From a virus (taxonomy: Duplodnaviria; Heunggongvirae; Uroviricota; Caudoviricetes): a stretch of DNA of 64,000 bases. Shown one piece after another: positions 45,001-48,000 of the stretch; the stretch's first letter is position 1, and every line of letters starts with the position of its first letter. The stretch lies in IMG/VR virus record IMGVR_UViG_2531839666_000014; one strand, given 5' to 3'. Position numbers: made by a program.

Positions 45001-48000
45001 ATTACCGGCAAACCCGGCGGCAATACCATTAGCCATCAGGCAAAGGCCTGTCATATTCTCTGGCGGCGGCAGGTAATCCCATGTCGCCAGAGAAGGTCCA
45101 AGGTTTTTCCCCGGTATTTTGTCCGTGTAACTGAGCACGGATGCATCCAGTTCAGCCACAAGTAAAAAATCCGCTTCTCCTCCACCTGATGCAGAGCGAT
45201 AAATCCGGCGGCGTTTAATACTGGCATTCTGCAATGGCACCGGAGACAGCGTCAGCTGTACCGCAGTCCCCGGAGTACGGAGTGTTACCTCCAGAGACGC
45301 CGGACCTGGCGGACCTTCTTCACCATAATCTGAGACAAAGGTTTCCGTATAAAACCGGGTTTCGTCATCATTCGGGTTATCGTCAGAAACATCACCGCCC
45401 TGCTGAACAGTACAGACAGGTGCTGTCGTCGGCGCGGGGATCCCCAGACGATACGATGATGTCGGGTGATTCCCGTCCCCTTTTGTGGCAATGGTCGCAT
45501 CCGTCACTTTAGGAAAACGCCCGTCAGTGTAGTAAATACGCCCGTGGGAGTCCTGAGCGACCGGACTGCGGATCACATCCACCACATCCGTCCATGCAAA
45601 CCAGAAATCGTCACGGTAATGAAAAATGGTTTTCGGCTTAATCGCGAATGTTTTCTCAGCCTCTGACATCTGGTGTTCAGGCGTGATCACTCCATAGCGA
45701 AAATGACAGTTTTCTGCCAGTACAGCAGAATGATCTGGCAGCATAGATGCAATAACGCCTGGCATCATCCCGCGCATAGTTGTTATATCGATATAAGGCA
45801 TGGTTGTCTGGTATCCGAAAATTTGAATGGCAGGTGAGTCACTGAATTGAAGTTTTAAAGGCGGCATACAATTGCGCCTGTGCAGAATACAGATTTCCAG
45901 AAATCTGAAAAATTACTCTTATCAGAGAAGAGCGTCAGAAACACGATCGGCATCACTGTTTCTGCAAACTTCCCTGTGGCAGTCTTTATTCGCCATATAA
46001 CGTAGCACTAAAGGTCTTCATTAATTTTTCCATTGTAGTTACTCCTTCCTTGTACCGGGGGTTGGTCATGCCCCCGTTTTTTATTCCCTCTGCTCCTTTA
46101 ATCGCACTGCCAAGCGCCACAACACACATCAACTGTGGCTGGTATGGAAACACCAAAAACTCTCACTTCCGGAAATCTGAAAAATTATCCATATCAACAG
46201 GATGCGCCGGAAACATGATTTCCATCACATCCAGGCCTGCACTTTCCGTGACAGTATTTATTCGCATAGTAAATACTTCACAAGTGTATAATTGACTCAG
46301 TTCATGGGGGAGGTGATGGTCCCCCATCTTTTTGTCTGTTATTCCTGTGCCCAGCCAACCCTGTATGCCAGTATCTCATCCGCACTGCTCAGCGATTCCA
46401 GGTCCTTCTTCATGGTGCGCTGCCGGACGTGGATTTCCATCCCTTTAGTGAACATCGCCTGCTCTGCCGCTTCACTCAGCGCAATAAGCTCTTCTGCTGT
46501 CACCGGCACATCATTGTTTTCCGCATCCGTCCAGAAAAACGCCTCCGGCAGTTTCCCCGCTTTCGCCGCCGCCACCGACGGCTCAAGACGCGTCTGCGTT
46601 GACTTCCCGTAGTCCCATTTACGCCCATTGTGCTCAAACGTGTAGTTCGCCGCTTCCATCGCATTACGCCAGGCGTTAATTTCATCGCCCTTCATCCCTC
46701 GCGCTTTCTCCGCGGTCAGCAGGTCCGTGATTTTCTCCCCGTCAAAACCCCAGCGCCCCGAGATGTCAGCTTTGCGGTTTTCTCCGTATCCGCCACCTCC
46801 ACCACACTCTGGCCCACTGGCCACAGAACTGATGCCACCCTGCTGATGCCGGTAATGACCCCGGCACTGTTATAAACCACCTTCAGCGTCTCTGCTGAAA
46901 ATACGACTGACACTCATACCAGTCCTGACCATCCTCTGATTTCAGGTACATCGCACCCGGCACATCCGGATTTTCCGGCGTGTATTGTCTGAAATTCTTT
47001 ATGTGCATCTGTAAGTCCTCCCGGTTACATATCTGAAAGATGATGCGCTTTATAATGAAAAATACTCACGCCCCGGCGCTCCTGACGACACATACTCACC
47101 AACACCAACGGTGCGCCAGTGAGAGCCATCAAACGTCATCTGCAGCGGCCTGTAGTAAATCGTTGTAACACGGCTGACGCCGCCCTGAGTGTTCCCCGAA
47201 AGCCCTGTAATGACTGAACCATCAGCCAGATTAACTGACCAGCCATGGTCCCCCTCCTGCAACTCATACGTTACCGGATTCCCCAGCCTGAAGCCCATGA
47301 CACGACTCTTCCCGTCATCTCCTGATGCCCCGGGCGGCCCCATCGGCCCGGTTTCTCCACGCTCACCTCTGGGACCGGGGTCGCCTTTCTCCCCTTTCGG
47401 TCCCTGCGCTCCCCGCGGACCAGCGGGGCCTGTTGCTCCCGTTTCACCTTTCGGCCCCTGTGCTCCGGGGTCGCCTTTCTCTCCTTTCGGACCGGGAACA
47501 CCACCTCCTGCTGCAGCCTCTTCTGCCTTTGTTTTCGCTTCATTTGCCACATCCATTGCCGCCTTCACGGCCTTCGGCGTGGCTGCCTTTGTTTCGTCAT
47601 TACTGCCAGTATCACTGCTTAACTGCACCACACCTTTCTGCGTCGTGCTGGCATCCCGCTGGCTGACCGTATCCGGTTGTTTTTTGTGCTGTAATCCACC
47701 CGCCAGTGGAAATACCGTGTGTCGCCGTAAACCGTACAGGTACAGACCGTGCCATTAATAAACCCCGTTGCACCGTATTCGCCAATGGTGACCCGGACTA
47801 TGGCAGCCTCATACGTTCCCATCACCTCAATGACACAGCCACCCAGATTGAGTTTTCCCGGTCCGACATCCGTGATGACTTTATTCATTGACGCAAGCAG
47901 TGATGCCTTCATCATCCAGTAAGGCTGGTCAAATGCCCCCTTTTCTTTCAGCCAGGCCACAAACTCACTCGTGGTCCATTCACCGGCCCCCGTATGAATG

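Follow-up and report, generated by a model that had tools for sequence, protein, structure and literature searches.

The region described here belongs to a 933W-like Stx prophage and lies in a 64-kb stretch of phage DNA, the whole of which was analyzed and is called the window below. On the plus strand, the region carries two homologous units, A (45895–46082) and B (46167–46333), which are 73% identical overall in alignment. They are flanked by a minus-strand DUF4376/tfa open reading frame (ORF; stop at 46339) on one side and by a minus-strand ORF of 563 aa on the other. Each unit opens with the box TTCCRGAAATCTGAAAAAT, which occurs exactly twice in the 64-kb window, on the plus strand at 45895 and 46167 (0.06 occurrences were expected from shuffled sequences), and each contains one copy of a “core” (45976–45993 in unit A and 46248–46265 in unit B). 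The distance between the units is the same, 272 nt, for the box and for the core, and the alignment of the units is gap-free over their first ~100 nt. When a profile constructed from 19 unit variants was searched against the whole window, the only matches were 45895–46082 (E = 1e-38) and 46167–46333 (E = 6e-42). An earlier note on this DNA had described two tandem units with a box, a core, and a plus-strand hairpin, located between the Tfa-like gene and the 563-aa gene and antisense to the tail operon. All of these elements were found, and the ORF coordinates agree with the position given. The features of the region are as follows.

44176..45867, minus strand: 563-aa virion gene, homologue of P13374 gp67
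45864..45908, plus strand: 3′-end remnant of ykgJ, ~14 codons (…AAYNCACAEYRFPEI) and a TGA stop at 45906–45908, identified by translation alignment
45895..45915, plus strand: box of unit A, which spans four codons (F-P-E-I) with the TGA stop and 7 nt from the start of the 3′ UTR
45909..46055, plus strand: 3′ UTR body of unit A (A-type), non-coding, from its similarity to the sequence downstream of intact ykgJ and its lack of coding constraint
46056..46083, plus strand: predicted Rho-independent terminator of unit A, with a 7-bp G+C-rich stem, a 7-nt loop, and a T6 run
46084..46165, plus strand: spacer between units A and B, which always accompanies the A-type unit
46166..46180, plus strand: start of unit B, comprising the last four ykgJ codons (L-P-E-I) and a TGA stop at 46178–46180
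46181..46303, plus strand: 3′ UTR body of unit B (B-type), non-coding
46304..46334, plus strand: predicted Rho-independent terminator of unit B, with an 8-bp stem, an 8-nt loop with GGAGGUGAU, and a CUUUUU tail
46339..46824, minus strand: tail-fiber assembly-like gene (DUF4376), convergent with the units

The start of the 563-aa ORF is at 45867, or at 45801 according to the RefSeq annotation, and the start codon of the long version abuts the ykgJ remnant. In the RefSeq annotation of near-identical genomes, the DUF4376/tfa gene is present in a longer form of 223 aa.

Judged by sequence, both units carry intrinsic terminators on the plus strand, each a predicted G+C-rich hairpin directly before a U-run. 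The hairpin of unit A is CGGGGGTTGGTCATGCCCCCG followed by T6 (46056–46082), and that of unit B is ATGGGGGAGGTGATGGTCCCCCAT followed by CTTTTT (46304–46333), in the orientation that the earlier note had assigned to them. These were the top two sites in a terminator scan that returned 8 sites in total, compared with 1.8 expected, and both hairpins were recovered in the MFE folds of the units. The terminator of unit B ends 5 nt short of the tfa stop codon and is 94–100% conserved across all loci compared.

Related E. coli prophages contain an intact ykgJ directly 5′ of the unit sequence and convergent with tfa. This gene encodes a YkgJ-family protein of 109 aa, which matches the Pfam family PF03692 CxxCxxCC (E = 8.5e-12). 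An annotated 330-bp CDS of the YkgJ family in E. coli NCTC9112 has its end, …CTT CCG GAA ATC TGA, within the box, and downstream of it come, in this order, unit A, the spacer, unit B, and what is left of a tfa gene. The same arrangement was found in Z1323MEC0001, and in NMBU-W12E19 and two viral contigs (L063 and L064) a B-type unit comes immediately after intact ykgJ, with tfa next in line. The box, labeled 5′ in the earlier note, is neither promoter-proximal nor the 5′ element of an RNA; it is the last four or five codons of ykgJ with the TGA stop (…F/L-P-E-I*), and the rest of the unit past the box is a 3′ UTR of ~125–145 nt with a Rho-independent terminator. The UTR body of unit A is 90–100% identical to the sequence directly 3′ of intact ykgJ in NCTC9112 and Z1323MEC0001. 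Furthermore, the translation of 45864–45908 (…AAYNCACAEYRFPEI) aligns to the 3′ ends of intact ykgJ in NCTC9112 and L063 (…EACNRARAKYGLPEI), and this remnant has neither a start codon nor the gene body. On the side of unit B, homology to ykgJ starts only at 46166..46180, where the LPEI* of the C-terminus is retained. A tblastn search of the whole window with the 109-aa protein as the query detected no homologue of intact ykgJ, and because no intact CxxCxxCC ORF is present in the window, the units are interpreted as remnants and not as a gene. The tandem itself appears to have been inherited and not made in this phage, because A–spacer–B also follows intact ykgJ in other strains.

The element was present in 127 of 5,426 complete E. 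coli genomes and was never annotated as RNA. Unit A with the spacer was found in 23 of the 5,426 E. coli genomes, as one block in all 23 and with at least 80% of the query covered in each, and no native context was found for the A-type unit without B. A CA-rich stretch in the spacer may resemble a GcvB target site. The spacer was also considered as a second 3′ end of tfa, which was rejected because the alignment was no better than those of shuffled sequences. Matches to the box in species-representative genomes were chance-like, as 36 of the 37 occurred in unrelated taxa, and the single enterobacterial match, in a Yersinia MAG (L047), showed no unit homology past the box. In other loci, ykgJ is truncated at about −75, −70, −18, and −12 nt from the stop codon, just after the stop, and at +45 nt. 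Five or more independent truncation points are therefore clustered at ~−75 to +45 nt around the stop, a clustering that was recognized post hoc and in a set in which several loci had been found via the box itself. The terminator adjoining tfa was kept in all truncated loci compared, and in nearly every one of them the whole unit of ~170 nt, not the terminator alone, was kept.

We also analyzed the level at which the units are conserved, which the earlier note had placed in the nucleotide sequence or the RNA structure. The former part of this claim held, and the latter did not extend beyond the terminator. RNAalifold gave no consensus structure beyond the terminator for the 19 variants (−4.3 kcal/mol), and the covariance analysis across these homologues yielded 0 compensatory pairs. 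The MFE folds of individual variants disagreed with each other, and RNAalifold and the comparison of the MFE folds reproduced only the terminator and a weak hairpin just after the stop codon; this hairpin is possible in both A and B, from differing sequences, at −2 to −4.5 kcal/mol. The single-sequence folding z-scores of the two units were −1.0 and −2.7. At the nucleotide level, types A and B have in common a conserved stretch of ~27 nt at the start of the UTR, along with a CAUCAC motif that is invariant. CATCAC is also present in a third, diverged type C; the similarity between the UTR body of this type and that of the common B type is significant (0 of 500 shuffles), and type C is homologous despite a protein identity of ~69%. 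The center of the UTR evolves faster than both flanking genes: it is 63–95% identical, compared with 94–100% for the ykgJ CDS and 86–99.5% for tfa in the same pairs, and conservation of the UTR in these pairs is limited to its first 27 nt and the terminator. Between contigs L063 and L081, the CDS is identical at 246 of 246 positions and tfa at 199 of 200, and the UTR center at 59 of 69.

The statement that no translation frame is conserved in the units was borne out, as the variable columns of the unit variants lacked codon periodicity (20/17/17) and pN/pS was 0.8–1.0 in the two stop-free frames. Among the homologous prophages, a conserved coding frame covers the first 14 nt of the box only and does not continue across the units. 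Promoter prediction found no sigma-70-like promoter upstream of either box; there were 2 promoter-like sites, compared with 1.9 expected, and neither is upstream of a box. Rfam was scanned with the unit region at E ≤ 10, with the whole window at the gathering thresholds, and with four related loci. The units were unmatched: apart from one chance-level match in the spacer (16.4 bits, E = 8.3), nothing at E ≤ 10 was within or overlapped the units, and the four related loci gave no match at E ≤ 1.

The units were then compared with known systems. They resemble phage “morons,” accessory genes with their own terminator at the end of the lambdoid tail-fiber region, in their tfa-adjacent position at the prophage end, their orientation opposite to the late operon, and their dedicated Rho-independent terminator. 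However, what survives of such a gene in the window, in two copies, is limited to its final codons with the stop, the 3′ UTR, and the terminator, and there is no ORF and no promoter. EcsR2 is encoded at the same kind of vestigial prophage end, where ykgJ is convergent with a tail-fiber/tfa remnant. The published 3′-RACE primer for EcsR2 is the reverse complement of the sequence just 3′ of the K-12-type ykgJ in L096, and the K-12-type ykgJ has a short 3′ UTR that is unrelated to the units. EcsR2 was rejected as the identity of the units because it is encoded on the other strand from ykgJ (presumably on the side of the tail-fiber remnant) and has no sequence similarity to them. Enterobacteria also have Hfq-dependent sRNAs derived from 3′ UTRs, such as CpxQ, SroC, DapZ, MicL, and SdhX. 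Like these, the units run from an mRNA stop codon to an intrinsic terminator with a U-tail, but this likeness is one of sequence architecture, and the window lacks their parent gene. The prophage sRNAs PasA–D, STnc100, AgvB, AsxR, and Esr41 are likewise intergenic, terminator-ended, and located in Stx-type or lambdoid prophages (PMC8550237; PMC4104026; bioRxiv 10.64898/2026.05.13.724894), and PasB, of the EPEC prophage PP6, is embedded among phage structural genes (PMC8550237). PasB was rejected as the identity of the units, because its Northern probe AATCCCGCAGTGATCGCGGAGCT (PMC8550237 supplement) is unlike any unit sequence and its coordinates differ; the other Pas sRNAs were considered together with it and were also rejected. 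STnc100, AgvB, AsxR, and Esr41 are Rfam families, whereas no Rfam model matches the units, and the covariance models of sok and DicF gave no match either.

Based on homology, synteny, the position of the stop codons, the sequence features of the terminators, and the lack of coding constraint, we consider, with a probability of about 75%, that the units are 3′ ends left orphaned by a YkgJ/CxxCxxCC-family gene, an accessory gene (“moron”) of prophages. In intact loci, the 109-aa gene lies at the end of the tail-fiber region and is oriented toward tfa. Its mRNA would end with …(F/L)PEI-TGA, an untranslated trailer of ~125–145 nt, and a Rho-independent terminator a few bases ahead of the tfa stop codon, so that the ykgJ transcript would be kept from reading through the tail genes in antisense. 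The window has lost the gene body, with ~14 codons left ahead of unit A and 4 ahead of unit B, and the remainder is two trailer-plus-terminator modules in tandem. The units here probably lack their own promoter. Their role may be, at most, to stop stray plus-strand (antisense) transcription ahead of the tfa and fiber genes, as terminators or insulators; otherwise, they would be neutral relics whose retention is due to the essential gene next to them. The pair of independent paralogous sRNA genes or duplicated leaders proposed in the earlier note is not supported; each unit is a ykgJ 3′ UTR with its terminator. The retention of the whole unit, the clustered truncation points, the conserved UTR start and CAUCAC motif, the similarity of type C, and the post-stop hairpin count against the relic view, and these hints are compatible with a function of the trailer RNA.

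If there is such a function, the ykgJ trailer could be a 3′ UTR-derived regulatory sRNA, probably Hfq-dependent, that is processed near the stop codon or transcribed from an unrecognized promoter; the two orphan copies would then be expressed and act in trans, and the variable center would serve in target recognition. The strong terminator with a U-run that closes each unit would suit this role, in many loci with a rearranged context the unit is still present as one block, the UTR start and CAUCAC are common to the types, and type C is homologous despite its divergent protein. Many prophage sRNAs of pathogenic E. coli have also been found only recently (PMC8550237; bioRxiv 10.64898/2026.05.13.724894). 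We nevertheless regard this explanation as unlikely: neither box has a promoter-like site upstream, a primary transcript has no gene to come from upstream of the units in the window, neither conserved structure nor covariation was detected beyond the terminator, the post-stop hairpin is weak, and the UTR center changes faster than the neighboring coding DNA. Moreover, the units have no Rfam match, are not PasB, and belong to an element with a narrow distribution (127 of the 5,426 complete genomes) and no RNA annotation. It is quite unlikely that the ~170-nt trailer constitutes an undescribed 3′ UTR-derived sRNA family in non-O157 STEC prophages, with a conserved 5′ segment (the small post-stop hairpin and the invariant CAUCAC), a fast-evolving mosaic central “seed,” and the terminator as an Hfq-binding site, which was kept as a block after deletion of the parent gene and has two active orphan copies here.

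The junctions with other phages might point to a different role for the box. 933W-like phages such as P13374 retain only the ykgJ tail and the box, which is in line with the relic view; the sequence of P13374 matches the window at 99.4% identity as far as 45916, exactly the end of box A, and again from 48103, inside the fiber gene. The homology of the lambdoid phage 1720a-02 to the window begins at box B (46165) and runs to 48206. Together with the several independent junctions within ~75 nt of the stop codon, these breaks would fit a short shared “linker,” formed by the ykgJ tail and the box, whose core TTCCGGAA is palindromic, for the exchange of tail-fiber/tfa host-range cassettes between lambdoid and 933W-like phages by homologous recombination, and the repeated box would mark two junctions. 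We give this little probability, because the junctions are scattered over the positions listed above, with a further one at about −45 nt, and do not fall at one site, the P13374 junction resembles a deletion into an internal tfa fragment more than a clean swap, and the loci were partly ascertained via the box. It is also an account of history that is compatible with the units being ykgJ relics. It is very improbable that the minus strand of the units, read in the same direction as the late operon, encodes small proteins; the candidates were a 54-aa ORF (46163–46327) and a 15-aa ORF (~45995–46042) with a strong Shine–Dalgarno sequence in unit A (AAGGAG, 8 nt ahead of the ATG). One minus-strand frame is open over the aligned stretch of ~98 nt in all variants tested and at first seemed conserved (NTxTE…HPVDMDxFSDFRK), and ORFs of this sort are annotated in one phage record. 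However, the pN/pS of this frame is 1.02 with no third-position excess, and the frame was rejected on its pN/pS near 1, its lack of periodicity, and its many frameshifts. The longer minus-strand ORFs are broken by single-base indels and stops in most variants, the ATG of the 15-aa ORF is lost in one variant (L019) and its changes are mostly non-synonymous, and RefSeq/PGAP calls no gene in the unit region. A type I toxin–antitoxin system, suggested by tandem short units with terminators, was dropped because there was no conserved hydrophobic peptide.

The main value of these results is for annotation, in that an apparent sRNA gene pair is accounted for as what decay has left of the 3′ end of a prophage accessory gene whose kind is known. 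The units are most likely ordinary phage genome debris and not a demonstrated sRNA gene pair. If the trailer were a functional RNA, it would add one more family to the prophage sRNAs of STEC, which would be of moderate interest and no surprise. The ykgJ relics also account for the oversized gap of ~470–540 nt in the late operon of this Stx phage, and the scar of a ykgJ–tfa module in 933W-like Stx phages documents the exchange of tail-fiber regions with lambdoid prophages.

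The earlier note had placed two repeated units between a tail-fibre-assembly-like gene and the gene for a 563-aa tail protein; both the repetition and the position between these two minus-strand genes were confirmed. The 19-nt box TTCCRGAAATCTGAAAAAT, the conserved 5' segment of each unit, occurs exactly twice in the window (45895 and 46167, plus strand; 0.06 copies predicted by shuffles), and a second repeated block (45976-45993 and 46248-46265) has the same spacing of 272 nt, so the first ~100 nt of units A and B align without gaps. The units are 73% identical overall, and a profile HMM of 19 unit variants matched the 64-kb window only at 45895-46082 and 46167-46333. 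A terminator scan returned 8 sites, where 1.8 were expected, and ranked the ends of units A and B as the top two, in agreement with the plus-strand hairpin and T-run described for each unit. RefSeq/PGAP calls no genes in the 45.8-46.3-kb gap; in a single GenBank phage record, two short minus-strand ORFs are annotated in it. The features of the region are as follows.

Start at 45867 (45801 in the RefSeq annotation), minus strand: 563-aa virion gene, flanking the units
46056-46082, plus strand: terminator-like hairpin then T-run of unit A (terminator scan)
46304-46333, plus strand: terminator-like hairpin then T-run of unit B (terminator scan)
Stop at 46339, minus strand: DUF4376 tail-fibre-assembly-like gene (tfa), flanking the units

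E. coli NCTC9112 carries, in the same orientation as the units, a 330-bp gene annotated as "YkgJ family cysteine cluster protein". It ends in …AAA TAC GGA CTT CCG GAA ATC TGA, so its stop codon falls inside the box; directly 3' of it come units A and B, with the spacer between them, and then a tfa remnant, an arrangement shared by Z1323MEC0001. NMBU-W12E19 has an intact ykgJ followed directly by a near-identical copy of the window's unit B and then tfa, and the order ykgJ, B-type unit, tfa recurs in two viral contigs (L063 and L064). The 109-aa YkgJ-family protein matches Pfam PF03692 (CxxCxxCC; E 8.5e-12). Because the ykgJ stop lies within the box in related loci, the box spans the last 4-5 codons ((F/L)-P-E-I) and the TGA and reaches a few bases into the 3' UTR. 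The rest of each unit is predicted to be a ~125-145-nt 3' UTR that ends in ykgJ's own intrinsic terminator, placed a few bases short of the point where the convergent tfa stops. Unit B retains only LPEI* of ykgJ, and the 45 nt that precede the unit A TGA still read …AAYNCACAEYRFPEI* in the window vs …EACNRARAKYGLPEI* in intact ykgJ genes; no intact ykgJ was found anywhere in the window. We consider it probable, at roughly three chances in four, that units A and B are remnants of a prophage moron of the YkgJ family: each would be an orphaned 3' end comprising the coding tail and stop codon followed by the 3' UTR and its terminator, and the pair would have been inherited as a tandem; the ykgJ body would have been lost while the tail-fibre region rearranged, and the 3' ends would have stayed behind.

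The A-spacer-B order with identical junctions was found in NCTC9112, Z1323MEC0001, 89-3156 and three viral contigs (L007, L009 and L019), so the tandem was not created in this phage. The extent of ykgJ differs among loci as listed below, and the terminator adjoining tfa is kept in every class.

Full length: some loci
About 25 codons, after a dinI-like gene: phage 1720a-02 and relatives
About 14 codons: window unit A and phage P13374
Six codons: related locus L116
Four codons: unit B
Cut just past the stop: strain 89-3156
Cut 45 nt into the UTR: related locus L123

Phage phiSTEC1589 (Stx1c) and prophages of several non-O157 STEC are 99.8% identical to the region, and P13374, a 933W-like Stx2 phage, shows 99.4% identity to the window (42799-45916 and 48103-49509) except for one 2.2-kb stretch. 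Homology to P13374 ends precisely where box A does, and homology to the lambdoid phage 1720a-02 runs from box B into the fibre gene; this marks the region as a scar left by tail-fibre/tfa module exchange. In P13374 and its relatives, only the ykgJ tail and a box with a 1-nt insertion are kept, and an internal piece of a DUF4376 gene comes next, so these phages carry a deletion derivative of the ykgJ-UTR-tfa module. The 167-bp gap upstream of gp67, the homologue of the 563-aa virion gene, in 933W-like Stx2 phages (L003/P13374, 3069-3235; related locus L061, 2516-2960) is made up of these three pieces, ykgJ tail, box and internal tfa fragment, and is a deletion scar of that module. The nearby collagen-repeat tail-fibre gene (47050-49418, minus strand) is split into 599-aa and 193-aa ORFs in different frames with a 13-nt overlap; in the near-identical STEC1590 prophage a single frame stays open for at least 782 aa, its distal part diverged from the window, and the window's fibre gene may be frameshifted or recombinant.

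The trailer is non-coding. Variable columns were spread over the three phases as 20/17/17 among 16 gap-free variants, and pN/pS in the only two stop-free frames was 0.82 (plus strand) and 1.02 (minus strand), which upholds the earlier statement that no translation frame is conserved across the units. Small minus-strand protein genes were rejected on the basis of the even phases, the pN/pS of 1.02, single-base indels or stops that break these ORFs in most variants, and a lost start: a 15-aa ORF behind a strong Shine-Dalgarno sequence in unit A lacks its start codon in one variant.

The suggestion that the units are paralogous small RNAs or duplicated leaders fared less well, so that the original interpretation is only partly supported. 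RNAalifold (19 variants) gave a consensus of -4.3 kcal/mol and no compensatory pairs, and no Rfam family matched the region, either in the window or in four related loci. A promoter scan returned 2 sites, where 1.9 were expected, and placed neither of them as a promoter upstream of a box: the first lies 165 nt ahead of box A and the second inside unit B. When variants are folded singly, their minimum-energy structures share only the terminator and a small post-stop hairpin (CAUCC…GGAUG in B, CUCUU…AAGAG in A; -2 to -4.5 kcal/mol), and with folding z-scores of -1.0 (A) and -2.7 (B) the case for structured or constrained RNA is weak. A function, for example as a 3' UTR-derived sRNA, is favoured by the retention of the whole unit in almost every rearranged locus and by a CAUCAC motif that is invariant across A and B variants and present (as CATCAC) in type C. 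Type C is a third long UTR type, and the ykgJ alleles it follows share only ~69% protein identity; that its body is nevertheless significantly similar to the common B-type one (0/500 shuffles) also favours a function. However, the UTR centre diverges faster than both neighbours, the ykgJ CDS and tfa (L063 vs the related locus L081: 246/246, 199/200 and 59/69 identical for ykgJ CDS, tfa and UTR centre), and only the first 27 nt of the UTR and the terminator stay at 89-100%; together with the Rfam and promoter results, this makes an sRNA role unlikely.

Several local sequence properties were also recorded. CAUCAC (45951-45956 and 46223-46228) is complementary to GUGAU(G) of the terminator loop in 16/19 variants. 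In the unit B terminator loop (46311-46319) lies GGAGGUGAU, a perfect Shine-Dalgarno-like sequence whose complement on the late-operon strand resembles the 3' end of 16S rRNA (AUCACCUCC). The spacer has a C/A-rich stretch, GCCACAACACACATCAAC (46126-46143), which we take to be reminiscent of GcvB target or sponge motifs. A ~30-nt hypervariable patch (alignment columns ~84-112; window 45978-46010 and 46250-46280) occurs as four or five discrete haplotypes, several able to form a different hairpin each, and varies among loci with otherwise identical genes on both sides (L063 vs L081); short gene conversion between prophage copies and quasi-palindrome-templated mutation are possible origins.

Two known sRNAs were rejected as the identity of the units. 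PasB, an EPEC sRNA "embedded among phage structural genes," has an unrelated probe sequence. EcsR2 is a K-12 sRNA of the yagU-ykgJ spacer, for which an origin in a degraded phage tail-fibre gene has been reported, and that locus would be what is left of a prophage end of the same kind; however, K-12-type ykgJ (loci L096 and L070 were examined) has a short 3' UTR unrelated to the units, and the 3'-RACE primer published for EcsR2 matches, exactly and in reverse complement, the sequence just 3' of ykgJ in L096, so EcsR2 would be transcribed opposite to ykgJ, from the tail-fibre-remnant side. Elsewhere in the window, two tandem minus-strand copies of the prophage sRNA STnc100 were found at 63544-63757 (198 bits) and 63819-64000 (117 bits), the latter cut off at the window end; STnc100 is related to PasD sRNAs of Stx-type prophages (2026 preprint). 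The other Rfam matches, all at gathering level, were as follows.

399-515, minus strand: ALIL pseudoknot (IS3-family frameshift signal), which puts an IS element at the start of the window
5387-5438, plus strand: DicF
26313-26487, plus strand: sok antitoxin (hok/sok type I toxin-antitoxin)
23319-23403, plus strand: sRNA-Xcc1, exactly at threshold (53 vs 53 bits)

Among 5426 complete E. coli genomes, 127 carry the element; most of these are non-O157 STEC, a genome can have up to six copies, and none of the 127 annotates it as an RNA; the A-type unit with spacer occurs in only 23 genomes. The element itself is undescribed, though of a familiar kind. Judging from its sequence, the sole activity that the orphaned ykgJ ends would plausibly have kept is to stop plus-strand (antisense) transcription before it reaches tfa.
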